From Vermamoeba vermiformis (lineage: Eukaryota): 64,000 nt of DNA. The notes under the pieces were generated by a model. The model did no database searches. It worked only from the letters and a program-made list of their open reading frames with translations, and was not told where the DNA came from. The stretch lies in the NCBI GenBank assembly GCA_045837725.1, contig JBEWZL010000278.1, forward strand, positions 62,001 to 126,000, written 5' to 3'. The position numbers were made by a program, and so were the translations under genes. The stretch's first letter is position 1; the number at the start of each line of letters is the position of its first letter. Below, one piece after another: positions 434-43,667 of this stretch.

Positions 434-2609
434 ATGAAGAACACCATCCAATTCGAAGATCTTCCCAACAAACTCTGTGAAATTCTGTATTTGTCGAATG
501 AAAATGTGGTAAATTTAAAATCAACAGGTGCTTGGGAACCCACGAACGGCAAACGATTTTATTTCGGTAAGCAAATCCAAACAAAAAAAGAGTAAATTTA
601 AATTAATCTTTACTATCCTTCTAATACTGTTATCACAAACGCCCATATATTAATTATATTTTGGCAATTTTTTAGAGGTCACAGTTATCTCAAAAGGCAC
701 CAAAGGCACGATCGCAATTGGTTTATCAAAGAACGAAAAAGATGCAGCCGACAAGCAACCTGGCTGGACTCACGGTACTTACTTAAGGTCTATATATAAC
801 TTATTGTTAAATTTTTCATTACAGGAACGTTTGGTTATCATGCTGATGACGGCATTGCTTTCTGCGATGATACTGAGGTGATCCGAAACTTTGGTCCCAT
901 ATGGGCAGTTCGAAATGTTACAGTAGGATGTGGTGTTGACTTTGAAGCACGTAAGTACCTCCATGCTGTTTAAAAAAAGTTGAGTGCATCCGTTCGAATT
1001 TAAATTGGCGAGATTGATTGGAGGTATTGGTTCAATTACGCACTAAATATTAGTATACGAGCTAATGTATATTTAGAATCAGTGTTCTTCGTATTTCCCG
1101 ATGGTACGAAGAAAACATTGCCGACGTACAAGATGCAAGCTTTTCCCGACAAGTTGTATCCAATGGTTGGCTTGCACAGCCTGCAAGAACAGATTAAAGT
1201 GAATTTTGGCACCAAAGGAATTCCTTTCGTGCATAATCCATTCGTAAGTAACGCAAAGAAATTTCTGGTACGCGCCATACACATCCGGTTTTTAACTGCT
1301 GATAATTTTTAGGCCGAGAATAAAATACCAACGTTCTTCAAATTCAACAAAACAACAAAAGCAATTCTTGAAGGCAACATACTCACCGTCACAGCGCCAA
1401 AGGCCGAGTCACTTCAAGCTGACTCTTTCTTCCCCCGTCTCACAACATCACTGCCTTATTATGAAGTCACCATACTATCACTAAAACGTAGGTGCCACCT
1501 ACAATATACCATCCAATTATTACCCTATTTGGCGTATTATGAACCTATACTCATACGCGTTTTTCATAGCGGACGAAACGCTTTCGATTGGTTTCAGCGA
1601 CCAAAGATTTGAGTCCAGTCAACTCGTGGGCTCCATGCAGAACTCGTTCGGCTACTTCAACAACGGCACTGTTGGCTTCAACTTCACGAGCGACGGGGAG
1701 CGAGGTGCGTTCAAAGTGAACGACGTGGTTGGATGTGGTCTTGCCATGGACTCGTTCAACCAACGCAAGGTGTTCTATACTGTAAATGGCAAGTTCGTCG
1801 GGTACATAACGAAGAGGGTTGCAGGTGGAATGGATTGCTTCCCAACGCTTGGATTCGTTGGAAGCGACATCCGCGTTCGATACAACTTCGGCCGTTCGGA
1901 ATTTGTTTGGGATATTAACGAATGGCCTAAATCTGACAAGAACTGCTATATTAGCAACTTGCCTACTGAAACTCTGCGAATTATTCTTGAGGTAAGATTC
2001 AGGATCGAGCCACATCCAGCATTTGTACTGACTTATTTTTTTCTTAGCATGCTTCACATACCGCTGCCTTTACCTTACTTAGCGTATCGTTGGTCAACAA
2101 GAAGTTCCATCAGCTCGTGACCGATAACAACGCTATTTGGCACAAACTTTATATGCAACAGTACCCGGATCAGAATCCAAACTTGAAGATGCAAAGTTGG
2201 GCTAAATTCTTCAAAGTACGATATGAAAGGTTTAAAGAGCGACCTGCCGAGCCTGCTATTGGTGCGTAATATTCAGATCCGCTATGTTAATTTTATTGTA
2301 CTGACGTTGGATTTGTTTTCAGAGAATTGCGAATTTGGCTTCAAATGCCCACTATCGTATTATCAATTAGATACAACTGAAGGCGATAGACGACATTGCA
2401 ACAAGTGCGATAAAGACGTCTACGCTGTCACATCCGTTGAACAATTAAAGCAATACGTGCAATTAGGACGATGTGTGGCCCTCGTGCAAGACGATGGCGT
2501 AAGTTTTTTTTTTGCTTTTTAATTTGTATGGTGGTGTTAACTAATAGCCTTGATGCAGTTTGATAGTGAGATGGGTGACATCGACCCTGACTATGGTGAT
2601 GAAGAGTGA
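434..2609 (+). CDS. Multi-exon protein with two SPRY domains, an F-box and a C-terminal Cys-rich domain
   Basis: Spliced translation gives SPRY motifs (YFEVTV..GTIAIGL..PGW..FGYHADDG..VGCGVD; YYEVTI..SIGF..FGYFNNG..DVVGCGL..VFYTVNG..FPTLG..YNFG), an F-box (ISNLPTETLRIILE) and FKCPL..HCNKCDKDVY..GRCVAL. The start codon is uncertain. Confidence 0.8.
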
Positions 2610-2978: not shown

Positions 2979-4673
2979 ATGATGAACGAATTGCAATTGT
3001 TAATAGCGTTTCTTGTTCTTGCGGTTGGTAAGGCATCATTTCTTTATTTTATTATTATCGGACCTCAAAATAATTATTTTAAACAGCAAGTTGTTCGTTG
3101 ATCGAGCAAGATCCAAATTTTGCGAATTTATTCGACACGGATTTTGTCAATTTTGGGACAATATATTCAACTGATTTTATTCGGAAAATTGCCAGCGAAA
3201 GAGGAGCCTCAAGACCTCCAATATTCGACAGTTTCAATGAGCCGAAGATCAGACAACAACTTCGCAACAACGTTCTTCTTCTCATTGATAAAATGCTCTC
3301 GATGCAACAAAACAACATGTCGTAAGTAATTTACTGCATAATTTAGCCACAAACGGCTTGCAATTTTTATTGACACGTGTCACTTGTTTTTTCAGATCCT
3401 GTGCAATTCAACGGCTCAGTGAAGCAAAAGCAATCAGAGATATCTATACAGATGATACGAAATTCAACAACCGGCCTCTGCCGCGATATTATCACGTGAC
3501 ACAACAGAAATGGGTTCCAGCAATCTTGGACTCGATGCTCATAAAGTGGGCCGACGCATTGTTTCCAGGAACATGGTTTGCAACAGGTAAAGCTCAACAA
3601 CAACAAGTGCCTAACGCAAACTTTATTGTAAAACATGTCATATTAGGATTCTACTCGATGCGGAGTCCGCAGAGCTATTCACCGGTTTTTTCGTTCGGCT
3701 CCGAGCTTGAACAACCTTTGAACGAGGTCAGCGATGACAGTCATTATATCTACAGCTATGGTCCTAACAATTATTACGGACTTGGTCGAATGCACAATGG
3801 TACATTGTGAACTTCGTATTGTAATTTGATAACTAGCTAAACATTATTTTTTCAGTGTCAATGTGGAAAAACAACACGGATCTGATCAGTTGGGGTGTCG
3901 AACAGAGATTTGTTGAGAATATAACCAGCTATATCAAATCGCGATACAATGAAGAAAAAGCATCGTTTTTGTTGTCAAAGATGACGAGCATCGATCAAAT
4001 TGTTCTTGAACGACAACTTTTGACCATCGCCCACGCGCACACCAACGATAGGGCCAATGCGTAAGCCTATTTTATTATACTATGATGTAAGTATTAACTT
4101 TATCACTAAAGGTTATTGGCTGGTTCTTTCATCGATTCAAGTTGGACCAAATTGAACATTTCCGTCGCGAACGTTTCTGTTGGACAGAGTACGTATTCTG
4201 CGTTGAGATACAAAGTTTTTGGAACTAACATCGTTTACAATGAAGTTATTATTCGTCCTTACGGGGGCAGCAACATGCAATACGAAATGATTGCTGCAGT
4301 GGACTACAACGGGCAGGAAATGACGTTTTTGAGTTTACATGTCGCGACACGCCAAACTACCGTTAGCACCGCGCCTATCTACGTGCTTGTCAACAAGTAC
4401 GTGCCAGACATGGAAATCAAAGACATGACAGTACTGACACAATTGATCGCTGATGGAGCTCTTCTCGATCAACCTCCACCATCGTACACCAAACTGAAAC
4501 GAAGTGTCAACCAGTTGATGACACGTGTCAAACATGTCACTCTCGAAGAACAACGACACAACGAGATACAATCCCAAAAATATCATCGAATGCTTTGCGA
4601 GTCACCTGAACACCATGCCAAAGCCATCGAGTACCTCCAGCAAAAGTTTGGTCTTCAACACTTGTCGTGTTAA
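2979..4673 (+). CDS. Array gene copy 1: secreted ~445-aa protein with putative ADP-ribosyltransferase-like domain; intact
   Basis: Exons 2979-3027, 3087-3321, 3396-3586, 3647-3799, 3856-4060, 4112-4188, 4246-4673 join in frame via GT-AG introns (1338 nt). Signal peptide MMNELQLLIAFLVLAVASCS. The same structure recurs in five paralogs. Confidence 0.85.
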
Positions 4674-4948
4674 GAGTTTACCACGAATAAATATGTGCCT
4701 CAGCGACAACAATTTTCGTTACCCTTGTTAACGGACGCCCCTTGTGAACAAATTTTAGGGGCGTTTATGTTTGTCGGGCCCTGGACTGAAAAACCGGCCC
4801 CAAATTTTGTCCCGTCCCCTCAAAAGTCACCTGGCACGATTTTATTTATTTGTAAGATCTTTCTATTGATACGCACACGGCTGTATAGTGTTGACGCTGC
4901 GCCAAATTATCCAATTCATATTAACCGTAGCGTCGGCGGGTTATTGTA

Positions 4949-6652
4949 ATGCAATTGACATTCATATTTATTTTTCTTGCAATTGGTAAGTTGTCGTTTT
5001 TTTAATTATCCTCACATTAATTTCTTTATTAATTTACTATCGGACCTCAAATTAATTTTATTTTAAACAGCAAGTTGTTCGCTGATCGAGCAAGATCCAA
5101 ATTTTGCGATTTTATTCAAAACAGATTTTGTCAATTCCGGAACAATCTATTCAACTGATTTTATTCGGAAAATTGTCAGCGAAAATGGAGCTTCAAGACC
5201 TCCAATATTCGACAGTTTCAATGAACCGAAGATCAGACAACAACTTCGCAACAACGTTCTTCTTCTCATTGATAAAATGCTCTCAATGCAACAAAACAAT
5301 ATGTCGTAAGTAATTTACTGCATAATTTAGCCACAAACGGCTTGCAAAATGATTTATTTGACACGTGTCACTTTGTAGATCCTGTTCAATTCAACGGCTC
5401 AGTGAAGCAAAGGCAATCAGAGATATCTATATAGATGATGCGAAATTCAATAGCAGGCCTCTGCCACGATATTATCACGTGACAAAACAGACATGGGTTC
5501 CAGCAATCTTGGACTCGATGCTCATAAAGTGGACCGACGCAGCATTTCCTGGCGCGTGGTTTGCAACAGGTAAATCACACCGAAATAGAATCGTTTAATT
5601 TAAAATCCTGTTTTCGTTAGGATTCTACTTGCAGCAAACAGCGAGGTACTATTCACCAGTTTTTTCTTTCGGCTCCGAGCTTGAACAACCTTTGAACGAG
5701 GTCAGCAATGACAGCCATTACATATCTTATTATGGTTCTCGTGATTATTACGGACTTGGTCGAATGCACGACAGTACGTAGTTATCTTCGTTCCATTACT
5801 AGCTAAAAATGACGTTCAGTATCAATGTGGAAAAATAACACGGATCTGATCAGTTGGGGTGTTGAACAGAGATTTGTTGAGAATATAACCAACTATATTA
5901 AGTCGCGATACGACGAAGAAAAAGCATCGTTTTTGTTGTCAAAGATGACGAGCATCGATCAAATTATTCTCGAACGACAACTTTTGACCATCGCTCATGC
6001 GCACACCAGCGATAGGGCCAACGCGTAAGCTTATTATATTATATATTTATATAGTATTAACTTACTTTCTTAGGGTATTGGTGGGTTCCTTCATCGATTC
6101 AAGTTGGAGCAAATTCAACATTTCTGCTGCGAATATGTCAGTCGGACAGAGTACGTATTGTTATAACTTTAAGAGGCTAAATTTAAACGGACTTGCCAAT
6201 CAATTCTATTTGCAGTTATTGTTAGCAGTGCCGGGTTACTGACAGACCTCTATTATGGCATGATTACTTCAGTGGACTACAACAAGAAGAAAATGTCATA
6301 CTTGACGCTGCATATCGCAACGCGTCAAACTGTTTTGAAGACTGAATCCTGGAGCTACTGTTTGATCTTCAATAAGTACGTGCCAGACATGGAGATCAAA
6401 GATATGACAGTACTGACACAATTGATCGCTGATGGAGCTCTTCTCGATCAACCTCCACCATCGTACAACAAACTGAAACGAAGTGTCAACCAGTTGATGA
6501 CACGTGTCAAACATATCACTCTCGAAGAGGAGCGACACAACGAGATACAATCCCAAAAATATCATCAAATGCTTTGCGAGTCACCTGAACACCATGCCAA
6601 AGCCATCGAGTATCTCCAGCAAAACTTTGGTCTCCGACACTTGTCGTGTTAA
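4949..6652 (+). CDS. Array gene copy 2; apparently intact
   Basis: Same 7-exon layout; signal exon MQLTFIFIFLAI; the checked junctions are in frame; ends HLSC-TAA. Confidence 0.85.
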
Positions 6653-6967
6653 AATGACAATAGTTTAGCGATAAATATGTGCCTCAGCGGAACGATTTTA
6701 GTTGGACGCTTTGTCCCTTGTATTGAGTGCCTAAAGTTGGCTTTTGATCGCCTTAGAAAGCGTGTGAACGGTTGAAAATTGTCGTCTTGTGAACAATTTT
6801 TGGCGTTTATGTTTGTCGGGACCCAAATTTAGTCCCGTCCCGTCCCCTCAAAAGTCACCTGGCACGATTTTATTTTATTTCGAAAGATCTTTCTATTGAT
6901 ACACACAGCTGTATAGCGTTGACACTACGCCAAATCATATGAACAATAGGTTCGGCAAGTTATTGTA

Positions 6968-8634
6968 ATGAAATTGACACTCATATTTATTTTTCTTGCA
7001 ATTGGTAAGTTGTCGTTTTTTTAATTATCCTCAAATTAATTGTTATTTTTTAAACAGCAAGTTGTTCGCTGATCGAGCAAGATCCAAATTTTGCGAATTT
7101 ATTCGACACAGATTTTGTCAATTCTGGAGCAAAGTATTCAACTGATTTTATTCGGAAAATTACGAGCGAAATTGGAGCTTCAAGACCTCCAATATTCGAC
7201 AATTTCAACGATCCAGAGATCAGACAACAACTTCGCAACAACGTAATTATTCTCATTGATAAAATGCTTTCAATGCAACAAAACAATATGTCGTAAGTAT
7301 TATACAGTGTAAATTAGCCACAAACGCTTGTAAAATAATTTTTATTTGACACTTTTTGTAGATCCTGTGCAATTCAACGCCTCAGTGAAGCAAAGGCAAT
7401 CAGAGATATCTATATAGATGATGCGAAATTCAATAGCAGGCCTCTGCCACGATATTATCACGTGACACAACAGAAATGGGTTCCAGCAATCTTGGACTCG
7501 ATGCTCATAAAGTGGGCCAACGCATTGTTTCCCGGAACATGGTTTGCAACAGGTAAAGCTCAACAACAACAAGTGCCTAAGGCAAACTTTATAGTAAAAC
7601 ATGTCCTATTAGGATTCTACGCGATCCTGAGTCCACAGAGCTATTCACCGGTTTTTTCGTTCGGCTCCGAGCTTGAACAACCGCTGACCGAGGTCAGCGA
7701 TGATAGCCACTATATCTATAGGTATGGTTTTCGTGATTATTACGGCCTTGGTCGAATGCACGACGGTACGTAGTTATCTTCGTATAATAATAACAAGTTA
7801 AAAATGATTTTCAGTGTCAATGTGGAAAAACAACACGGATCTGATCAGTTGGGGTGTTGAACAGAGATTTGTTGAGAATATAACCAGCTATATCAAATCA
7901 CAATATGACGAAGAAAAAGCGTCGTTTTTGTTGTCAAAGATGACGAGCATCGATCAAATTGTTCTCGAACGACAACTTTTGACCATCGCTCATGCGCACA
8001 CCAACGATAGGGCCAATGCGTAATAATATTATAATATGGTATATGTATGGTATTAACTTGCTTTCTTAGGGTATTGGTGGGTTCCTTCATTGATTCAAGT
8101 TGGACCGAATTGAACATTTCCACTGCGAATATTTCTGTTGGACAGAGTAAGTATTTATCAGAAGGTAAATTGTGACTTTCTAATCGATTCTATTCGCAGT
8201 TATTGTTCGCGGTACCGGGTTAATGACAGACCTCTATTATGGCATGAACTTCAGTGGACTACAACAAGAAGAAAATATCATTCTTGACGCTGCATCTTGC
8301 AACGCATCAAACTGTTTTGAAGACTGAACCCTGGCGCTACAATTTGATCTTCAACAAGTACGTGCCAGACATGGAGATCAAAGATATGACAGTACTGACA
8401 CAATTGATCGCTGATGGAGCTCTTCTCGATCAACCTCCACCATCGAACACCAAACTAAAACGAAGTGTCAACCAGTTGATGACACGTGTCAAACATGTCA
8501 CTCTCGAAGAACAGCAACACAATGAGATACAATCCCAAAAATATCATCGAATGCTTTGCGAGTCACCTGAACACCATGCCAAAGCCATCGAGTACCTCCA
8601 GCAAAACTTCGGTTTTCAACACTTGTCGTGTTAA
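6968..8634 (+). pseudogene. Array gene copy 3 with a 2-nt deletion in the last exon (pseudogene or assembly error)
   Basis: GGCATGAACTTCAGTG at 8241 versus GGCATGATTACTTCAGTG in copy 2; the shifted frame stops at 8325-8327. Confidence 0.7.
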
Positions 8635-9354
8635 AATGACAATAGTTTACCGCTAATAAATATTAGCCTTAGCGACAACGATTTTCTTCGTGACCCCTTG
8701 TTAACGGACGTCCCTTGTATATAATTATAAGCATTGTATAAGTCTCACTTTGCAACAACCCAACCCCCACAACCCCTTTTTGTTCATTTTTTTATAATTT
8801 AGGAGGCGCAGACGTGCGCGAGCGCAACATCCGCACTAACAAAAATTGTGACAGGGACAACACCATACGGTGAAGCCCAACCGATGTCGCACTCCGAGTG
8901 CAAGAGGAGCGCAACGACCGACCTAGAGATGCCTTCTTGATCACATCTCTACTGTCCAGGTAAGTATGAACTATCCAGGTGTTGTTTTTGCTTTTTTGTG
9001 CTTGATCCGGGATAAATATTTTGTGGGATTGGTTGCACGTTGCAAACAGGGGCTTAGAAAAGTACGGACGTACGATGACTATGCAAGAGAAGAAAATCTT
9101 TTTTTGCATGGCTAGATGATGCTAAGAAAAGTTACAACGTGCAAAGCGATCCCCGCTCAGGGGCCTACTTTTTTCTCGAATGCTAAGAAACAGCATAACG
9201 ACCAGGCAGGCTGTAGTTACTATTGCCAGATCGGCGTCGTTGAACGACTTTGTGCTGCGGCAGTCATGTAAATAAAGAAGAAAGGACCGTCGGAGATTCG
9301 GAGATAAATTTATTTATTTAGGGTTAGGGTTAGAAATTTGCTTTTTGGTTTCTT

Positions 9355-11880: not shown

Positions 11881-14292
11881 TTAGAATTTAACGCCGTGAC
11901 GACCGAAGAACAAGTCCATCTGTTTTTTAACGAACTTGGCGCCTTCGTGCTCAGTCTTGATGTGGTCTGGAATGCCTGGCAAACCATTCAAATTAGCCGC
12001 TAGAGTAGCGAAGCCTTTTTGGAGGTCATTCATATCTTGCTTATGCTCCATAGCGATCATCTAACAAAAAAGAAAATTGATCAGATCCTGATCCCTGTTC
12101 AATAGTGCTGATGTGGGATCATATAGTTATATATGTATATTACCTCGATAGGCTTGATGTTAACAGGGTCGGGTAACATTGTAGGGCAATCAGTTCGCGG
12201 TGTGTCGCGTTCGAGTACGATCTGCTCAAATGTAGCGGCATACTTGTCACTATAGAGCAATCCAATAAGACTATGAACACTATATAAACTTCATACATAT
12301 CGATACTTACCGCTGAGTCAAGTAGTTTGGCAAGTTGAACATCTTACGAACGGTAGCGTAAACGGATGTGTGATCGAAATAACTTGATTCAGGCTCGTGA
12401 ATTAAAGTGCCCTATTTGAGCAATGTTAATTAGTATCGTTACTATATACTTTCCTTATTTAATCATTAAATTTGGTCGAAGAGTTAAGGAGATCTAGGTT
12501 CCGTAACTAGTTACCTTGTTGATCCACGGTGAAATCATTAAAGTGGGAACACGAACGCCTAATCTATCGAAGTTGAATGCAGGGTCGCTAGAATTAAGGC
12601 CGTCAGGATTAGGCACGTTCATTGGTGGCGGAACATGATCGTAGAATCCACCATGCTCGTCAAAAGTAATTATCAAAAGCGTTTGATTCCATTGTGGTGA
12701 GTTTCTAACGGCATTGTAGACTTGCTTAATCAATAATTCGCCTATAATCAACGACAAAAAGTTTAGCTAAGTCAGATCTTGGCCGGTACAAAAATAATCG
12801 AATCCGGATTCCGCTTACCTTGAGAAACGTCATGCGATGGGTGCTGATCATTAGCAGGATAATAAGGAATAGAATAATATCGTGGCTCGATAAATGAAAA
12901 TTGCGGCAAAGTACCAGCTGCAGCGTCGCTTTCAAATTGCGTCAAAATGCCGTAATTATGTAACAGATAAGTCGGGGAACGAAGTCTCCTCAAGAATCTA
13001 TATGACATAGTTAATATGTGCCATACTATATTATTGACTACGTACACAGCTGAAGGAAACATCTCAAAGTAGATCTTCCATGAAACGCCTTGATCGTAGA
13101 ACTCGTCAAAGTACGTGCGTTGAGGCAAGCCCTCAGCCATAGTAATAGGGTCATTGTTGCCGACACCGTGAGAAGTACCAGATAACAAATAGAATCTGTT
13201 GACCTCAGTAGGGCCTAGAATAGTCGTTAGAACATGACGGATCCACGAGATCTATTTTTAGCTATGAAAATCTTTCTATTGCAATTTGCTAATTATAGTT
13301 ATAAAGCTACATATTGCATTATAGCTAATATGATTATATTAAACCGCCTTAATTTAATTAAATAATAATATCAATTTCAAAAGACTGATCTCCGCGGAGG
13401 TCCACGGTTCACATTGAGTTATGATCCATCTTATATATATCGATATAGTAAATATGACGTATCCTTACCTGGCACTGAACTGTACCATCGATCAAATAGC
13501 GCAAACTCCTTGGCTAACGTAGCCGTTACTGAAATACTCGAATTTGAAAATGATTGCATGATAGTAGCGCCCCATCCCTAATTTTTTACGTGTTATTTAC
13601 ATGAACATAATAAATACGCGTTGAATTTCATTAAAAGAAGGTTAAGCATGATTTAGAAGCCAAGATCTAATTTAATCGAAAAGTCGTCAAGTCCAAAACT
13701 GAGTTATGCGTTGTCTTAAAAATATGATTACCTGTCCATTTTCTTCTGCACTAGCAACGAATCCGGACATATTCGGAGCATCTTTAGGGCCAGGGTTATG
13801 AGTTCCAAAAATTTGTAAAGTTGCATCTGCGTTGCAAAATGAAAATTAGGCTTTCAAAAATATGCATAATATTCTATATATGCCATCATAATATAATATA
13901 ATCGTAAAAAGGGCTTGCAAACGATTTCACATTTAGAACTTAGTTAATAAATCACGCGACTAGATTTTAAAATTACAAATAAGCTTTCTATAGCGCTAAA
14001 AATTACCTGTAATTTGATGACCTGGATTATTAGTCACGAATGAAGACTTATTGCTGACATAGACTCGTTTGGAGTTGGGATCTTGAGGATTGTAAAGGTT
14101 ATATTCGTTGCCTGTAAGTCCATCGATATCGGAGTTTAGTGTTTGTTTTAAATAACCACAATAGTGATCAAAACTTCTATTTTCAAGCATAAGCACTACA
14201 ACGTTTTTGATCGGGGTTTGGAATTTTGGAGCACCAAGTACATCCGCTGAAAACAGCAAGACGATGATGCCGATAATAGCAACAGATCGCAT
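11881..14292 (-). CDS. Secreted phosphoesterase, non-specific phospholipase C (NPC/PlcN) family
   Basis: Signal peptide; [40 protein letters not shown] and [16 protein letters not shown] motifs across several exons. Confidence 0.92.
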
Positions 14293-15634: not shown

Positions 15635-17508
15635 TCAACACGACAAATGTTGAAGACCAAAGTTTTGCTGGAGGTACTCGATGGCTTTGGCATGGTGTTC
15701 AGGTGACTCACAAAGCATTCGATGATATTTTTGGGATTGCATCTCATTGTGTCGCTGTTCTTCGAGAGTGACATGTTTGACACGTGTCATCAACTGGTTG
15801 ACACTTCGTTTCAGTTTGGTGTTCGATGGTGGAGGTTGATCGAGAAGAGCTCCATCAGCGATCAATTGTGTCAGTACTGTCATGTCTTTGATTTCCATGT
15901 CTGGCACGTACTTGTTGAAGATTATCAAACTGCTCCTTAAGGATGCAGTATTCAAAACAGTTTGACGTGTTGCGATATGCAGGGTCAAGAATGATATTTT
16001 CTCCTTGATTGAGTCCACTGAAGTAATCATGCCATAATACATGTCTGGTGTAAACCCGGCACCACCGCTAACAATAACTGCGAATAGAATCGATTAGAAA
16101 GTCACAATTTCGCTTCTTATAACCATACGTACTCTGTCCGACTGAAATATTCGCAGCAGATTTGTGCGATTTGGTCCAACTTGAATCGATGAAAGAACCA
16201 GCCAATAACCTTTAGAAAGTAAATTAGTACTTATATTCAGTAATCTGTTGCTTACGCGTTGGCCCTATCGTTGGTGTGTGCATGAGCGATGGTCAAAAGT
16301 TGTCGTTCAAGAACAATTTGATCGATGCTCGTCATCTTTGACAACAAAAACGATGCTTTTTCTTCGTCATATCGCGACTTGATGTAATTGGTTATATTCT
16401 TGACAAATTCTTGCTCGACACCCCAACTGATCAGATCCGTGTTGTTTTTCCACATTGATACTGAAAATCATTTTTAGCCTGTTATCAAATTATTATACGA
16501 AGATAACTACATACTGTCGTGCATTCGACCAAGTCCGTAATAATCACGAAAGCCATAATAAGCGATGTAATGGCTTTCATTGCTGACCTCATTCAGAGGT
16601 TGTTCAAGCTCGGAGCCGAAAGAAAATACTGGCGAATAGCTTTTTGCTTTGAACTGCAAGTAGAATCCTAACGAAAACAGGATTTTAAATTAACCGATTC
16701 TATTTTGGTGTGATTTACCTGTTGCAAACCATGCGCCAGGAAACAATGCGTCGGTCCACTTTATGAGCATCGAGTCCAAGATTGCTGGAACCCATGTCCG
16801 GTTTGTCACGTGATAATATCGTGGCAGAGGCCGGCCGTTGAATTTCGCATCATCAATATAGATATCTCTGATTGCCTTTGCTTCACTGAGGCGTTGATTT
16901 GCACAGGATCTGACAAAAAGTAACACGTCAAATAAAATTGGATTTGAACGCGTTTGTGGCTAAATTACGCAGTAAATTACTTACGACATATTGTTTTGCT
17001 GCATCGAGAGCATTTTATCAATGAGAAGAAGAACGTTGTTGCGAAGTTGTTGTCTGATCTTCGGCTCATTGAAACTATCGAATATTGGAGGTCTTGAAGC
17101 TCCGCTTTCGCTGGCAATTTTCCGAATAAAATCAGTTGAATAGATTGTTCCAGAATCGACGAAATCCGTGTCGAATAAATTAGCAAAATTTGGATCTTGC
17201 TCGATCAGCGAACAACTTGCTGTTTAAAATAAAATTAATTTGAGGTCCTATAATAATAAAATAAAATTACAATAATTATATTATTAACCAAATAATTGTT
17301 AAGTTAACTACGACAAATTTTGCAAATTTATTGGCAAGCATAGGAATAACAGCTTGCCTGAATGGCGAATGAAGGAGCGTACGGTCGCATGAAAAAATTA
17401 GTAAATTTAATTTACGTTGAGCATTAAAACTGAAATCGAGAATAATGTGAGGATAATTAAAAACAACTTACCAATTGCAAGAAAAATAAATATGAATGTC
17501 AATCGCAT
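15635..17508 (-). CDS. Array gene copy 4; apparently intact, with enlarged intron 1
   Basis: Signal exon MRLTFIFIFLAI at 17508; the checked exons are in frame; ends HLSC-TGA. Confidence 0.85.
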
Positions 17509-17618
17509 TACAATAACTTGCCAACGCTACAGTTAATATAATTTGACGCAGCGTCAACACTCTAGAGCCGTGTGCATATTAATAAAAAGAACTTTCGTCG
17601 AATTCAATTAACTTTTCA

Positions 17619-17792
17619 GCGAAAGTTCCTACGAAATTGTAGCAACTTGTACCAAAAATAGAATTTTTTTTAATGGCAGTATTTTGAGCTGGCGACTTCC
17701 GTGGCAGCGTCCGTTGCATTGGTATTACCGCAAGCCGTTGGCGCGAACTCCACAGCTCTTCGTCGAAGCTCGCACGGAAGTTCCTGCCGCAG
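17619..17792. repeat. Conserved non-coding element upstream of copy 4, repeated at ~19929-20113 and ~22033-22142
   Basis: Shared GAAAGTTCCTA...CTTGTACCAAAA...GAGCTGGC..GGTATTAC..GCAAGCCG block upstream of all three minus-strand copies. Confidence 0.8.
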
Positions 17793-18145
17793 TTTGAAAC
17801 AGCAAAAACTCCTCCGTTTAATTGTTTCCGCTGCGAGAAATGCGAGAAAGCTCAGCGGAACAAGTCGAGTAATAGAGTACTTTAAAAAAAATTTAATTTT
17901 TAATCGTGCCAGCGGATTTTTGACCTAATTTGTTCCGGACCAAATTTGAGAACAGGTTATGTTTATCGGACTGAAAAATCGGACGTCCAATTAGGCTAGG
18001 ATAGCCTACATAGACTACGATGTATTATGGCAGATTCTGTTTGATCGTTGGCTTCTATTGCGGATCTGGAAATTGCGGGCATCGAAGTTTAACGGTAAGT
18101 AGACCCGCTGCTGAGGCACATTTTTATCGTTAAACTTTCGTAAAT

Positions 18146-19801
18146 TTAACACAACAACTGTCGAAGACCGAAGTTTTGCTGGAGATACTCGATGGCTTTG
18201 GCATGGTGTTCAGGTGACTCACAAAGCATTCGATGATATTTTTGGGACATGTTTGACACGTGTCATCAACTGATTGACACTTCGATTCAGTTTGGTGTTC
18301 GATGGTGGAGGTTGATCGAGAAGAGCTCCATCAGCGATCAATTGTGTCAGTACTGTCATATCTTTGATCTCCATGTCTGGCACGTACTTGTCGAAGATAA
18401 AATTGTAGCTCCAGGGTTCAGTCTTCAAAACAGTTTGACGCGTTGCAAGATGCAGCGTCATGAATGATATTTCCTGTTGCTTGTTGTCCACGGAAGTAAT
18501 CATGCCATAATAGAGGTCTGACATAAACTTGGCACCTCCAACAATAACTGCGAATAGAATCGATTGGCAACTCGCACTTTAACTTTCGCTTATAAGTTAT
18601 AACAATACGTACTCTGTCCGATTGACATATTCGAGTAGAAATGTTGAATTCACTCCAATTTGAATCGATGAAGGAACCCACCAATACCCTAGTAAAGTAA
18701 GTTAATACTCTATTTATATCATTTTATAATATTATTACGCGTTGGCCCTATCGTTGGTGTGTGCATGAGCGATGGTCAAAAGTTGTCGTTCAAGAACAAT
18801 TTGATCGATGCTCGTCATCTTTGACAACAAAAACGATGCTTTTTCTTCGTCATATCGCAACTTAATGTAGTTGGTGATATCCTTGACAAAGTCTTGCTGG
18901 ACACCCCAACTGATCAGATCCGTGTTGTTTTTCCACATCGATACTGAACATCATTTTTAGCTAATTATCTAATTATTATACGAGTTCACAACGTACCATT
19001 GTGCACTCGACCAAGTCCGAAGTGAGTACGAGGACCATAGTAAGTGGCGTAATGGCTGTCATTGCTGACCTCGGTCAGCGGTTGTTCAAGCTCGGAGCCG
19101 AACGAAAAAACCGGTGAATAGCTCTGTGGACTCAGGATCGCGTAGAATCCTAATAGGAAATGTTTTACTATAAAGTTTGCGTTAGGCACTTGTTGTTGTT
19201 GAGCTTTACCTGTTGCAAACCATGCGCCAGGAAACAATGCGTCGGACCACTTTATGAGCATCGAGTCCAAGATTGCTGGAACCCATTTCTGTTTCGTCAC
19301 GTGATAATATCGTGGCAGAGACCGTGCTGTTGAATTTCGCATCATCGATGTAGATATCTCTGATTGCCTTTGCTTCACTGAGGCGTTGAATTGCACAGGA
19401 TCTGCTCGTGTAAAAAAAAATTGCTTCGCAAGTGGTTTGTGGCTAAATTACGCAGTAAAGTACTTACGACATATTGTTTTGTTGCATCGAGAGCATTTTA
19501 TCAATGAGAAGAAGAACGTTGTTGCGAAGTTGTTGTCTGATCTTCGGCTCATTGAAACTGTCGAATATTGGAGGTCTTGAAGCTCCATTTTCGCTGGCAA
19601 TTTTCCGAATAAAATCAGTTGAATAGATTGTCCCAGAATTGACGAAATCTGTGTCGAATAAATTCGCAAAATTTGGATCTTGCTCGATCAACGAACAACT
19701 TGCTGTTTAAAATAATTATTTTGAGGTCCGATAATAATAAAATAAAGAAATGATTACTTACCAACCGCAAGAAACACAATTATCAATTTCAATTCGTTCA
19801 T
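18146..19801 (-). pseudogene. Array gene copy 5; pseudogene with three frame-disrupting lesions
   Basis: +1 insertion near 19324 (exon 3), 1-nt deletion near 18632 (exon 6) and a 35-nt deletion near 18247 removing TLEEQRHNEMQ relative to copy 4. Confidence 0.85.
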
Positions 19802-20198
19802 AATTTTAAGGTAAAGTGCTGCTTTCGTAGATCTAGTAACAAACAAGATCGTAGGTAAAAAAGAAAGTTTCGTACGAAACTGAGGCTAAGCGTTCTATGA
19901 TAAAATAAAAAATTTTACTATTCAGCGCGCGAAAGTTCCTATGAAGTTGTAGCAGCTTGTACCAAAATATAGAATTTTTTTTGATGGCAGTATTTTGAGC
20001 TGGCGACTTCCGTGGCAGTGTCCGTTGCATTGGTATTACTGCAAGCCGTTGACGCGAACTCCGCACGACGTCGAAGCTCGCACGGAAGTTTCCTACGAAA
20101 GTTCCTGCTGCAGCGGATCTGGAAATCGGGGTTTCGTGGGCATCGATTTTTTAACGGTTAGTGGACCCACTGAGGCACATTTTTATCGTTTTTTAAAT

Positions 20199-21890
20199 TC
20201 AACACGACAAGTGTTGAAAACCAAACTTTTGCTGGAGGTACTCGATGGTTTTGGCATGGTGTTCAGGTGACTCGCAAAGCATTCGATGATATTTTTGGGA
20301 TTGCATCTCGTTGTGTCGCTGTTCTTCGAGAGTGACATGTTTGACACGTGTCATCAACTGGTTGACACTTCGTTTCAGTTTGGTGTACGATGGTGGAGGT
20401 TGATCGAGAAGAGCTCCATCAGCGATCAATTGTGTCAGTACTGTCATATCTTTGATTTCCATGTCTGGCACGTACTTGTTGACGAACACGTATCTCAAGC
20501 TAATCAGTGTGGTGCGAACGGTAGTTTGACGCGTTGCGACGTGTAATCTCATAATCGTCATTTCCTGCCGCTTGTAGTCCACTGCAGCAATCATTTCGTA
20601 TGGCATGTAGGTCAGCGCGGAAGCGCGCAAGAGGACTAATTACATAGTAAATAAGCCAGATGCAAAAAACCTATTTCAAGACGTACTCTGTCCAACAGAA
20701 ATGTTCGCGACGGAAATGTTCAATTTGGTCCAACTTGAATCGATGAACGAACCCACCAATAACCTTTTAGTGATAAAGTTGATAATTACATCATAGTATA
20801 ATATAATAAGCTTACGCGTTGGCCCTATCGTTGGTGTGCGCATGAGCGATGGTCAAAAGTTGTCGTTCAAGAACAATTTGGTCAATGCTCGTCATCTTTG
20901 ACAACAAAAACGATGCTTTTTCTTCATTGTATCGCGATTTGATATAGCTGGTTATATTCTCAACAAATCTCTGTTCGACACCCCAACTGATCAGATCCGT
21001 GTTGTTTTTCCACATTGACACTGAAAAAATTATGTTTAGCTAGTTATCAAATTACAATACGAAGTTCACAATGTACCATTGTGCATTCGACCAAGTCCGA
21101 AGTGACTACGAGGACCATACAGCGAGGTATAATGGCTGTCATTGCTGACCTCGGTCAGCGGTTGTTCAAGCTCGGAGCCGAACGAAAAAACTGGCGAATA
21201 GCTCTGTGGACTCCGTATTAAGTAGAATCCTATATGCCACCTGTCAATAAAGCTAGTATTAATTATTTTTGTGCCGTACCAGTTGCAAACCACGCGCCAG
21301 GAAATGCTGCGTTGGGCCCACTTTATGAGCATCGAGTCCAAGATTGCTGGAACCCATTTCTGTTGTGTCACGTGATAATATCGCGGCAGAGACCGTCTGT
21401 TGAATTGCGCATCATCTGTATAGATATCTCTGATTGCCTTTGCTTCACTGAGCCGTTGAATTGCACAGGATCTACGAAAAGTGACACGTCAAATAAAATT
21501 GTCAATAAAAATTGCTTCGCAAGTGGTTTGTGGCTAAGTTACGTTGTAAAATACTTACGATATATTGTTTTGTTGATTTGATAGCATTTTATCAATGAGA
21601 AGAAGAACGTTGTTGCGAAGTTGTTGTCTGATCTTCGGCTCATTGAAACTGTCGAATATTGGAGGTCTTGAAGCTCCATTTTCGCTGGCAATTTTCCGAA
21701 TAAAATCAGTTGAATAGATTGTTCCAGAATTGACAAAATCTGTGTCGAATAAATTCGCAAAATTTGGATCTTGCTCGATCAACGAACAACTTGCTGTTTA
21801 AAATAATTATTTTGGTCCGATAATAATAAAATAAAGAAATGATGACTTACCAACCGCAAGAAACGCTATTATCAATTTCAATTCGTTCAT
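20199..21890 (-). CDS. Array gene copy 6; one +1 C in exon 3 (homopolymer error, pseudogene, or rescued by intron retention)
   Basis: Signal exon MNELKLIIAFLAV; TGGGCCCAACGC near 21316 versus TGGGCCAACGC in copy 3; the other checked exons are intact. Confidence 0.7.
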
Positions 21891-22478: not shown

Positions 22479-25361
22479 TTATTGTGGCACGTTAGCAGCA
22501 GGGTATCCGTTTGGATAGTAAGGGTATTGTTGGGTGGGTACCATGTGGGGTGGGTAGTTCGGATGCGGTTGACCTGGCTGTGGGTAACCTTGCATGTACG
22601 GATTGCTATTGTAAGGCATCGGTTGGCCATATACATTAGGTGGCATGCCGTAGTAGCCTTGCGGCGGGTAATAACCTTGGTGTGGTTGTGGCACGAAATT
22701 TCCGTATTGTTGCTGGACTGTCACGTGTTGCGGTGGGTACATCGGCTGTTGAGGAGGATAAGCTGCCATATGGCCTGGTGTAAACGGCTGTGCTTGGACA
22801 AGGTTGGCGTTTAGCTTTGCCGATTGAGGTCCGAACGTGATTGGCTGCATTGGCGAGGGAGCTGAAGTCGTGCCATTGGCTTGCTTCGACACGCCGCTGA
22901 TCGTCTTGACAGGTGTCGGCTCGAGTTCAATTTTAGCGCTGTTATTAACCTTCTCGGGGACTACTTGAGACACGGGTTGGACGACAGGTTGGGCTACTTG
23001 AGGCTGAGCAGATTGTTGCACGCCGTTCGGCTGCGCAGTACTAGCAGGCTTTTGTTGTGTGGCAGCACTGCCATTCTCCGGCAATTGTTGTTCACCAATC
23101 GCTTGAACAGGCTTGGCAACAGCACCAGTAGTCGTTTGAGCTGCCTTAGCTGTGCTATTCGGCTGAGCGACTTGAGAAGTCTGTTGCTGTTCCACAGGCT
23201 TCTCTGTGTTATTTTGAGTAGGCTGGGCAGTTGTGTTCGGTGTAGGGCTTTGAACGGCCTGTTGTTTCTCTTTGAACTTTTGTAAACCGACCCAAACAGG
23301 TGGAGGCGCCATCGGCTTCTTAGGCTGGGCTGTTTCAACGGGTTTTTCTTCCTTCTCTTGCTGTTTCGATGCTGAAGGCTGCTTAGGCTTCTCTTGTTGA
23401 CTATTTTGATGGCCTTGCGTGCCCTTCTTGGGGGCAGCTTTGGGAGCACCAGATTGTTTGGGCTGTGCCTTTGGTGCTTCTTTAGCTGGCGCGGGCGTTG
23501 CGGTCTCGGCAGGTTTGACTGGCTCGACTGGTTTAGCCTTGGCCATCGCTAAAATCTGCGCGTAAGACATCTTCGTCATGCCCTTGCTTTGAGTCAAAGG
23601 ATTGGCTTGTTGGTCACTTGTACTAGTCTCAGTCTTTGTAACTTCGGGCTTAACTTCAGGTGTACTCTCTGGCGTTTGAGTATCTTGCTGTACTTCGTTT
23701 GTAGCATCATTTTCGGTGACCTCGTTAGCAAGCTCGGGATTTTCGGCGATTTCTTCGCCTTCCTTGGGAGGCTCGACTTTGGGCTTCGGAGGCTCCGAGA
23801 ACTTTTGTGCCCAATTGACTGGCTTGCCCCACACACTTGGTGGCGGTGCAACTTCGTCACGTGGCTTTGGTGATGTTCGGACAGGCTAAATTTAGAAAGG
23901 TTAGGGTCAGTTTTCGTCAAAAGCGAGTGATGACTTTTGCAGAATTTTTCTAGTCATGCAGAAAATAAATAAACTAAATATTATTATTAACATACTGCAG
24001 GTGCCGGCTGTCGGTTAGCTCTGTTATCGTTACGTCGTTTTTTCTTCGACTTGACGTCCTGAAATCCCGGTGACTCGGGATCGCACGCGTTAACATTTTC
24101 TTCATTCAACATGTACGCCATTTGTCTATCTTCCTCCTCCATATCTAAACAACAATATTATTACTATATAATGATAATAGTATAATATCGAATTGGTACG
24201 TACTTGCAAGTTCATGCAGCCACAAATCATAGCCAACATTTTGGTACGCGAATTCTTTCTCGTTTTTAGGCTCGTTCAATACTTCAGCCACTAAATCGAC
24301 CACAAGTTCTATTTAAAATAGCATTAGGACTATATTAAAAGAAAATAATATCGATATTGCCTTACCTTGACAAAAGATTAAATAATCCATTTGTTTCTTA
24401 GTATATACAAGGTCGTAATGGTTGCCGTACGAGTAGCATAATTTAATTTGGTTCTTAAATCCGTTGTCTATCGGCGGAATTTCACCGTTGGAATGGATCT
24501 CGAAGTTTACTCTGAAAAAAAAATTAGAAATTTTGTAACGCGTTGGATCTCGCCAGTAAATCATACTTATACAAAAGCGATAACGCCTGAAGCTCTATTT
24601 GACCGCCCCAACAGATGTCCTAATAAAGAAATTAGTATTCGTTCGAGGTAAGTTTTTCGGATGTGGATCTGGTCTTACCAAACTCATAGCATGAAGATAA
24701 TCGTCGAATGTCTGGCCATCAGGCAATGCAACGAAATCTTGAAAGTCTTGGCGGTTTTGACGCAAGTATTCAACGCACTCTAAGCGCACTTTTCGGTGCA
24801 TGACTTGAGTTGCGTAAATGGATTCAGCAATGGCGCGAAACTAAAAGCAAATAATTATAAGCATTAATATTTGTGGCTTATTAAATATAATAGCACGAAT
24901 ATACGAGGGATTAGATTCAAATGCTACCCCAAAATGAAAAGACAATTTGCGATCGCGAACAGAAAATTGTTAGTCAATTCTTTAATTACAAATACAACCA
25001 TAAAATAATGTATTTGCTTATATTAAAGCATCTCAAGTCTTGCAATTAATTATAAGAATTATTCAGTATTAATTTCCGGCCTCATCCATTTTTTATATTC
25101 TTCAGTATTTTTAAATATTCAATAAAAGCTTACCAAACAAGCACCATCCTTAGGCATTTGTTTTCTAACCAATCCTAACGAGTCTAACTTCGCATCCAAA
25201 ATCAAGATCTCGTCGTCTTCATTTTGTTTTGCTGCGGGCTGGCCCGCTGAAGGTATAGAAACATTATTAGGCTCTATAACTGTTTCTATTGTGAATTCAG
25301 AGTTAGTTTGGCCAATAGGCTTTTTGTTGGCTCGCTTCTGCGGTTGCTTTCTTCGACTCAT
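22479..25361 (-). CDS. OTU-family deubiquitinase with long Q/P/Y-rich low-complexity C-terminus
   Basis: Catalytic motifs MPKDGACLFRAIA and LCYSYGNHYDLV across exons; final 451-aa ORF rich in P/Q/Y. Confidence 0.88.
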
Positions 25362-34258: not shown

Positions 34259-35649
<1,391 letters not shown>

Positions 35650-42618: not shown

Positions 42619-43667
42619 TTAAGATTGTTGGATCGTTGTGGTAGAAACGCCAGCGTTGGAGTCCTTAGGCTCAATGATAGTGGTGCTTTGTTCGACGACG
42701 GTAGTAGTGCCAGGACCAGTCAAGCCACTAATAGCTTCTTGGGTCTTCAATTTAGCTTGACCAACGGTCTCTGATAAATGCAACTTCTCGTCGACAACCA
42801 TAGCAGCTTCGACGGTTCTGTCCTTAACAGCTGAGGCGGCCTCAACAGTTCTGTCCTTAACGGTGGAAGCGACTTCGACGGTCTTGTCCTTAACTGCGGT
42901 GGCTCTTTCGGTCAGATGCAACTTCTCATCGATAACGTGAGCAGTGTTAACTGTGGTTTCCTTAATAGTTTGGGCGGTCTCGACGGTCTTATCCTTAACA
43001 ATAGTAGCGACTTCGACGGTCTTGTCCTTGACGACAGTGGCGGCGTCAGAGATCTTTTGAGAAATTCCGAAACGAGCTAGAAAAGAGAAATAGGTCAATA
43101 TTATGCTTTGATGGTTAACAAAATATCGCGCGGAAAGGTAATTAAACTAATGAATGATTATTTGATGCTTACCATCGTATTCAAGAGCCTTTTTCTTGAT
43201 CTCTTCACCGAGCTTGTAGCCAGCGGCCAACAAACTGTTAATAACAGCGGTAGCAGTGCCAGTAGCTTCACTGGTCAATTCTTGCTCGTCGGCGAGCTTC
43301 TTCAAGGGGTCACCAGGGTGTTGGATCTTGCTTTCTTCTTTTTGATAGACAAAGATGGGTTGATCTTGAATAAGAGCATTTGACAACAAGCAAGCTGTTC
43401 TAGCAGCTTCTTCAGTACCGAAGACAATTTCGGCCTTCAAAGTGCCGTCTTCTTGGCTGAGATGCGATTAAATTAGAAAAAATCTTCGTAAAATTGTAAG
43501 GCAATTAATTGAGCGATTATTAATGCTTAATATTGTATTAACGGTAATAATACTTACGAAATCAAGTCGATATGCTCGATCTTGCCGCAGAAAGAGAAGA
43601 AATCATTGACTTGATCAGAAGTGGCATTGTTAGAGACGTTCTTAACGTAAACAGTTCTGGATTCCAT
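42619..43667 (-). CDS. Vip1/BPA1-like RRM protein with LEA-like 11-aa repeats
   Basis: VNDFFSFCGKIEHI, AARTACLLSNALI and LLAAGYKLG..KALEYD motifs; repeated TVEVA.xVKD[KR]. Confidence 0.8.
42780..43040 (-). repeat. Coding 33-nt tandem repeat (11-aa unit)
   Basis: Recurrent GACGGTCTT[GA]TCCTT[AG]AC on the + strand, encoding KDKTVEVA-type units. Confidence 0.8.

Follow-up and report, generated by a model that had tools for sequence, protein, structure and literature searches.

Four tyrosine-rich variable patches in six neighbouring paralogues of Vermamoeba vermiformis, set in a framework under purifying selection and gene conversion

The 64,000-nt stretch of Vermamoeba vermiformis DNA analyzed here (the window, to which all gene positions refer) contains six neighbouring paralogues of an uncharacterised gene, three on the forward strand (2979-8634) and three on the reverse strand (15635-21890), which we designate c1 to c6. 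The genes of this family are spliced, and the variation between their products is clumped in four short, Tyr-rich patches (HV1 to HV4). The framework around the patches is constrained and carries a mosaic of gene conversion, and the patches, compared across the six copies, evolve with an omega of about 1. We tentatively favour the view, to which we give slightly less than an even chance, that these loops are paralogue-specific contact sites of a binding protein, which diversified between paralogues and were then kept. The six genes would in that case be the germline repertoire of one lineage-restricted secreted protein, most of which would be kept alike by purifying selection together with gene conversion between copies. 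Homogenisation would have spared the four Tyr-rich patches, presumably on the surface, and in a wider sense the beta-rich part that exon 6 and the beginning of exon 7 encode; these would have diverged by point changes and in-frame indels, giving each paralogue its own set of loops. These loops would act as specificity-determining contact sites, which implies no somatic mechanism.

A 35-nt anchor taken from a conserved flank has six matches in the window, three per strand, where none are expected (100 shuffles). Alignment of 2.4-kb units around the anchors defines a conserved unit of ~1.6 kb (Table 1). Exon models of all six copies were built from GT..AG sites; each has seven exons and a product of ~445 aa, and all 36 introns are GT..AG. 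No seventh copy was found in the window by tblastn with the c1 protein as query. The two gene triplets converge on a 7-kb spacer. TRF reported no tandem repeat, because the repeat period is ~2 kb. The mature proteins share 82-90% pairwise identity. All products have a short hydrophobic, signal-peptide-like start, e.g. MQLTFIFIFLAIA, together with conserved N-x-S/T sites and four conserved Cys, features that suggest a secreted protein. Intron 1 of c4 is much longer than its counterparts in the other five copies (53-85 nt) because of a ~200-nt insertion.

Table 1. Features of the window. Copies c1 to c6 are the six paralogues; frame breaks refer to this assembly.
Feature	Positions	Strand	Remark
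c1	2979-4673	+	7 exons; 445-aa open frame provided intron 6 is spliced
c1 exons	2979-3027, 3087-3321, 3396-3586, 3647-3799, 3856-4060, 4112-4188, 4246-4673	+	
c1 intron 3	3587-3646	+	60 nt; in frame, no stops
c1 intron 6	4189-4245	+	57 nt; in frame, no stops; weak acceptor AAG
HV1 of c1	3655-3675	+	SMRSPQS; 3 codons past exon 4 start
HV2 of c1	3748-3777	+	IYSYGPNNYY; YG core fixed
HV3 of c1	4251-4286	+	IRPYGGSNMQYE; directly after intron 6
HV4 of c1	4365-4391	+	STAPIYVLV; lengths differ by 3-9 nt gaps
Conserved motif (c1)	4395-4484	+	KYVPDMEIKDMTVLTQLIADGALLDQPPPS; identical in 6/6 copies
c2	4949-6652	+	intact frame, 444 aa
c3	6968-8634	+	frame broken: 2-nt gap (-2 nt), exon 7
c4	15635-17508	-	intact frame, 446 aa
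c4 intron 1	17220-17471	-	252 nt
c5	18146-19801	-	3 frame-breaking indels: +1 exon 3, -1 exon 6, -35 exon 7
c6	20199-21890	-	frame-breaking +1 nt in exon 3
SPRY ORF piece	1485-2120	+	
U1 spliceosomal RNA gene	8807-8967	-	complete; directly after c3
Phosphoesterase family ORF piece	12772-13251	-	spacer between triplets; RNA reads support gene
Low-complexity ORF	22479-23885	-	long; P/Q/T/K-rich
Eukaryotic aspartyl protease ORF piece	34259-34807	-	
LEA_4 ORF piece	42619-43146	-	match below Pfam cut-off
Low-complexity ORF	52737-55661	-	long; P/Q/T/K-rich
Myosin head ORF piece	56097-56585	-	

The original prediction, made from the letters of the window, described four CDR-like, Tyr/Gly/Ser-rich loops that vary within an invariant scaffold. 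All 24 of its loop strings were reproduced across the six copies, and the coordinates of the c1 patches were verified by translation. Only four of its 44 loop columns are invariant, compared with 295 of 391 columns elsewhere. Columns with at least three residue types number 48, and 29 of these lie inside the 49 loop-window columns of 435, a concentration with a hypergeometric probability of 9e-20 for windows chosen after the fact. The clumping is also apparent in a window-free measure, the mean nearest-neighbour distance (2.75 versus 4.89), which was reached in none of 5000 permutations. Length variation of HV3 and HV4 is in frame, as had been described, with gaps of only 3 or 9 nt; all five gap sets in these two patches are multiples of 3, and all frame-breaking indels lie elsewhere. 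The flank that had been quoted as conserved, downstream of HV4, is indeed the same in every copy. The scaffold is conserved rather than invariant, with two further stretches that also vary, one between HV3 and HV4 (320-345, 10 of 26 columns invariant) and one in exon 6 (278-305, 16 of 28 columns invariant). Rather than two separate loops, the C-terminal variable part forms one broad zone in which variation peaks twice. The sequence pattern as such is confirmed as real and non-random.

Two types can be distinguished within HV1, {c1,c3,c5,c6} versus {c2,c4}, with identical HV1 DNA in c3 and c5, and two within HV3-HV4, {c1,c6} (type A) versus {c2-c5} (type B). As for composition, the loop windows are enriched 6-fold in Tyr (17.8% versus 3.0%) and also in Gly (7.3% versus 3.2%), as had been described, but hardly in Ser (10.5% versus 9.5%). 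The Tyr enrichment argues for binding loops. Together with the fixed Tyr and Gly positions inside the windows, it is less easily reconciled with an alternative that we regard as a serious possibility, though a somewhat doubtful one, namely that these are unconstrained surface loops drifting at the neutral rate and tolerating in-frame indels. Conversion and purifying selection on the rest of the gene would then give the patches their hypervariable look, and some of the copies would be decaying pseudogenes. On the other side, Tyr makes up 9.4% of residues in the 29 truly variable columns, which is near the 6.8% expected from local base composition and counts against binding loops.

The six copies have no single history along the gene. 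The 128 informative two-state sites divide the copies by 22 different bipartitions, where one tree permits three, and the trees of five gene segments disagree. Segment 278-358 shows a deep split between {c1,c6} and {c2-c5}, with an internal branch of 0.34, and the tree of the adjacent segment 359-451 is almost flat. Silent third-position divergence between types A and B is 0.26-0.34 in segment 278-358, 0.05-0.09 in segment 359-451 and ~0.10 in segment 17-160. Heterogeneity of silent sites between segments was found in three of five pairs tested, with p values of 0.0003 (c2-c6), 0.002 (c1-c4) and 0.03 (c1-c2); the other two pairs gave 0.06 (c1-c6) and 0.24 (c2-c4). Introns follow suit, with differences of 0.31-0.32 in introns 3, 5 and 6, which adjoin HV1 and HV3, and of 0.12-0.19 in introns 1, 2 and 4. 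The phylogenetic signal thus conflicts from one part of the gene to another, and silent divergence is uneven, as concerted evolution would have it. Much of the conservation of the scaffold is therefore due to concerted evolution rather than to constraint. The variable patches are older tracts that escaped conversion. The raised silent divergence in the loops (pS 0.43 versus 0.19 in the scaffold) is expected of such old unconverted tracts and is in keeping with neutral drift.

Diversifying selection on the loops had been predicted, with a recombination-aware analysis of dN/dS per site as the check. Pooled over 15 pairs (NG86), pN is 0.34 in the loops and 0.05 in the scaffold, with NG86 ratios of 0.70 and 0.23, respectively. 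By maximum likelihood (GY94) on the six copies, the non-loop codons of exon 4 have an omega of 0.14 (LRT 18.5 versus omega = 1), within a range of 0.14-0.33 for the framework, which is under purifying selection. The corresponding omega is 0.82 for HV1+2 (p = 0.57 versus 1) and 1.01 for HV3+4 (p = 0.99 versus 1). The predicted diversifying selection did not emerge from these six-copy values, neither of which differs from 1, nor from the comparison of M2a with M1a, run over the whole gene on segment-specific trees with M0 branch lengths fixed. Here the LRT was 4.79 (p = 0.09), with 1.8% of sites at omega 4.7 and only site 195 exceeding a posterior of 0.8; M2a improves little on M1a, in which 44% of sites have an omega of 1. 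A framework that is constrained around loops that are not is what binding loops would show. The loop values themselves are what unconstrained sequence gives, and together with the fit of M1a they favour neutral drift over binding loops.

Omega above 1 was found only in HV3+HV4 among the four close copies c2-c5. All six pairwise comparisons of these copies have dN/dS >1 (NG86), which speaks against neutral drift, and GY94 gives an omega of 6.5-9 on three topologies (p = 0.011-0.035). For the whole of 305-358 in the same copies the value is 1.4-1.5 and not significant, and in 600 simulations at omega = 1 the HV3+HV4 signal weakened to a marginal p = 0.05 with fixed windows and 0.083 when the most-variable windows were picked, as neutral drift would allow. 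The loop changes within type B, summed over pairs, comprise 72.7 non-synonymous versus 9.3 synonymous differences and are nearly all single changes. In HV1 and HV2, within-type pairs have ratios of 0.19-0.76 (NG86). For HV3 and HV4, the type B comparison hints at positive selection. We read the loops as free of the framework's constraint, being either unconstrained or weakly positively selected; adaptive diversification and a mere lack of constraint are not told apart by these tests.

Expression and splicing of the family were assessed with contigs of a public run, X7, which are under another organism label and 95-99% alike to the window copies. The joints of these contigs, all GT..AG, coincide exactly with the exon models of c2, c3 and c5, so that the family genes are expressed and spliced in this run. 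Four introns of c2 are confirmed in this way, introns 3, 4, 5 and 6 (joints 5567>5619, 5773>5820, 6024>6074 and 6150>6216), as are intron 6 of c3 (8146>8200) and intron 2 of c5 (19401>19468). Intron 6, directly before HV3, is therefore confirmed in two copies, c2 and c3. The splicing evidence of X7 concerns c2, c3 and c5, with c6 outside its coverage, and the splicing of c1 is model-based. In c1, retention of intron 3 or intron 6 would add 20 or 19 residues, respectively, with the frame kept; being in frame and free of stops, both would be taken as coding by an unaided reader. That the loops themselves might be introns misread as coding was considered and rejected, because the four patches all fall within exons and the joints of c2 bear out its introns 3-6.

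The contigs of X7 also bear on whether the loops are being kept. Compared with exon 7 of c2, the contig on this copy has seven listed differences in 24 inter-loop codons and no listed difference in the 23 HV3/HV4 codons covered; one of ten differences is unlisted, so that the count in the loops is 0 or 1. This pattern sits poorly with neutral drift and is a weak hint that the loops of each copy are now maintained. Frame-breaking indels occur in three of the six copies in this assembly (Table 1), as decaying copies under the neutral reading would have them, and the loop strings of c3, c5 and c6 therefore come from reading across breaks. X7 covers two of the five breaks, those in exon 6 and exon 7 of c5 and in exon 3 of c6 lying outside its coverage. 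At both sites covered it differs exactly at the break, having two additional letters after 8247, where c3 has its gap, and lacking one letter at 19325, where exon 3 of c5 is broken. These two breaks are therefore either strain-specific or assembly errors, and the decay invoked by the neutral reading may be so too.

Raw RNA-seq reads under the same species label are sparse (only 28, 24 and 23 matching reads per run), and most match in part. In the copies they match only a ~44-nt block at the start of exon 5 (3861-3904 on the forward strand, ~18898-18941 and 20972-21015 on the reverse strand), beyond which they continue in unlike sequence in either direction; on the upstream side the overhang reads ...YGLGRMHNIS and is synonymously diverged. 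A block with unlike flanks points to a more distant expressed paralogue elsewhere that has the identical short block, which would be either a micro-conversion tract or a case of constraint at the nucleotide level. This observation bears on a further alternative, that loops are swapped as blocks by short conversion tracts among many members, including members elsewhere in the genome, yielding a combinatorial repertoire as in antigenic-variation families. We consider this improbable. It would account for the two or three shared types per patch, where six independent ones might have been seen, for the exon-5 block of at least one more divergent expressed paralogue elsewhere, and for X7 joints between parts of different copies. 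One of these joints (4984>7057) connects c2 exon 1 with c3 exon 2, and the other (8070/16256) connects c4 exon 5 with c3 exon 6, which lie on opposite strands. Such joints reflect either a different mosaic in that organism or chimeras of near-identical paralogues, which can arise as assembly artefacts. Furthermore, the changes between type B loops are, as described above, nearly all single and non-synonymous rather than imported diverged blocks, and no donor archive was found within the window.

Searches for relatives returned fragments only. Pfam gave nothing meaningful at E ≤ 10 for exon pieces of c1, c2 and c4 and 12 C-terminal sequences, the queries being exon-sized and the sensitivity accordingly reduced; PDB sequence searches yielded no match with E below 0.4, and Atlas searches gave no usable match. 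When 1.84 billion representatives were searched exhaustively by HMMER with a 186-aa C-terminal piece, eight proteins were identified, all unnamed fragments of 61-120 aa on metagenome-type contigs, and an N-terminal search added one further fragment, P0011, with 73% identity to exon 3. The relatives P0001-P0011 (E 4.9e-47 to 4.1e-06, 42-95% identity to the C-terminal piece) are 61-141 aa long and named "hypothetical protein"; none is full length and none is annotated. The fragments carry the motif KYVPD..I.DM..L.QLIADG.LLDQPP...L.RSV, in which QL.ADG.L.D..P is invariant in the distant fragments too. In these distant fragments HV3 and HV4 differ most from the window copies, and both ISYLTLH.ATRQT and the ADG motif hold. 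A word-indexed search with the C-terminal piece found no longer relatives, scans of metagenome loci gave pattern matches in 113 and 259 stretches with no relative confirmed, and 'QLIADG' did not occur in a full-text literature search. By sequence comparison the family is an orphan, with no annotated relative among the proteins searched.

On the premise of an ADP-ribosyltransferase fold, the original prediction placed HV3 and HV4 in a separate beta-rich domain. Their position in a beta-rich part agrees with an AlphaFold2 model of exon 7 of c2 built with 12 sequences (pLDDT 71.5), in which five short predicted strands (residues 2-50) precede four helices. In it, HV3 is modelled as a low-confidence loop between two strands (residues 5-10) and HV4 as a strand-turn-strand (residues 38-50). 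Foldseek returned no match to this model at E ≤ 0.001. In a wide VIA-align search the best match had a Z of 5.4 (8p5d_LM0, rmsd 3.1, 69 aligned), and two of 48,161 chains reached Z ≥ 5, all of them generic small barrels (SH3/KOW-like). A Z of 5.4 is within the range of common arrangements, and the predicted exon-7 structure has no clear fold match. Pfam output for the exon-sized pieces contained no Ig family.

HV1 and HV2 had been placed near the substrate-specificity loops of an ADP-ribosyltransferase (ART), provided that the fold was right. That the proteins are ART toxins or effectors with HV1 and HV2 in this role seems to us very improbable. In favour of it stand the impression behind the original prediction and, noted by eye, an invariant FSFGSELEQ, which unites S.S and E.E, and RYYH upstream of it. 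In known ARTs, the S-x-S and E-x-E motifs are tens of residues apart, whereas S.S and E.E are adjacent in FSFGSELEQ. No ART family was found by Pfam at E ≤ 10 in any exon piece of several copies, the PDB sequence search gave no match, and Atlas gave no lead. A model of exons 3 and 4, made from four sequences and with 20 intron-encoded residues in the modelled piece, was unusable (pLDDT 38.9). ART and Ig chains are absent among the fold matches listed for the exon-7 model, which is not the candidate catalytic part. For both folds, these results are an absence of support rather than an exclusion.

Several known systems resemble the family in part. Like antibody CDRs and other Tyr-rich binding loops, the patches are short, length-variable and rich in Tyr and Gly, lie between conserved strands and number several per chain. 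However, no Ig domain was detected here, and the diversity is encoded in the germline as differences between six paralogues, without any sign of somatic rearrangement. The likeness to CDRs is an analogy, to which Tyr richness, length variation and the positions of the loops in one partial model lend modest support. As in multigene families such as MHC genes, plant NLR LRRs and invertebrate immune repertoires, the paralogues here are clustered, conversion tracts form a mosaic along them, the framework is homogenised, and silent divergence is raised near the old, diverged patches, but the protein family here is unrelated to those families and omega >1 is not established in it (p = 0.09 for the site models and 0.05-0.083 in the simulations). 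Venom and toxin families have in common with it tandem duplication, sharp boundaries between conserved and variable DNA and, if the products are indeed exported, secretion. In contrast to such families, only ~10% of columns are hypervariable here, the proteins have ~445 aa and only four Cys, and there is no toxin-family match.

If the loops are binding determinants, this family, which has no annotated relative, would provide a germline recognition repertoire on a new protein scaffold, and at the same time a compact natural example of selection that works against gene conversion. It is possible but unlikely that this amounts to an undescribed family of secreted recognition proteins of a free-living eukaryote, in which a new scaffold bears a germline set of binding loops, Tyr-rich and variable in length, that selection keeps distinct in opposition to gene conversion. 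Such a family would have arrived independently at the solution of variable loops on a fixed frame for binding diverse targets, for instance prey, microbes or self/non-self cues. Should the loops prove simply unconstrained, the six genes would be a young tandem family of an ordinary kind, in which some copies are decaying.

The window is eukaryotic in character, with short GT..AG introns and without long ORFs or tRNA genes. The U1 gene next to c3 scores 78.4 bits and matches model positions 1-166 of 166, and RNA reads of runs X20 and X21 fall in its bin. ORF pieces with matches to known families are scattered through the window, including the spacer between the gene triplets (Table 1). Two long low-complexity ORFs, both on the reverse strand, coincide with a GC content of 0.48-0.52 and a strong AT skew.
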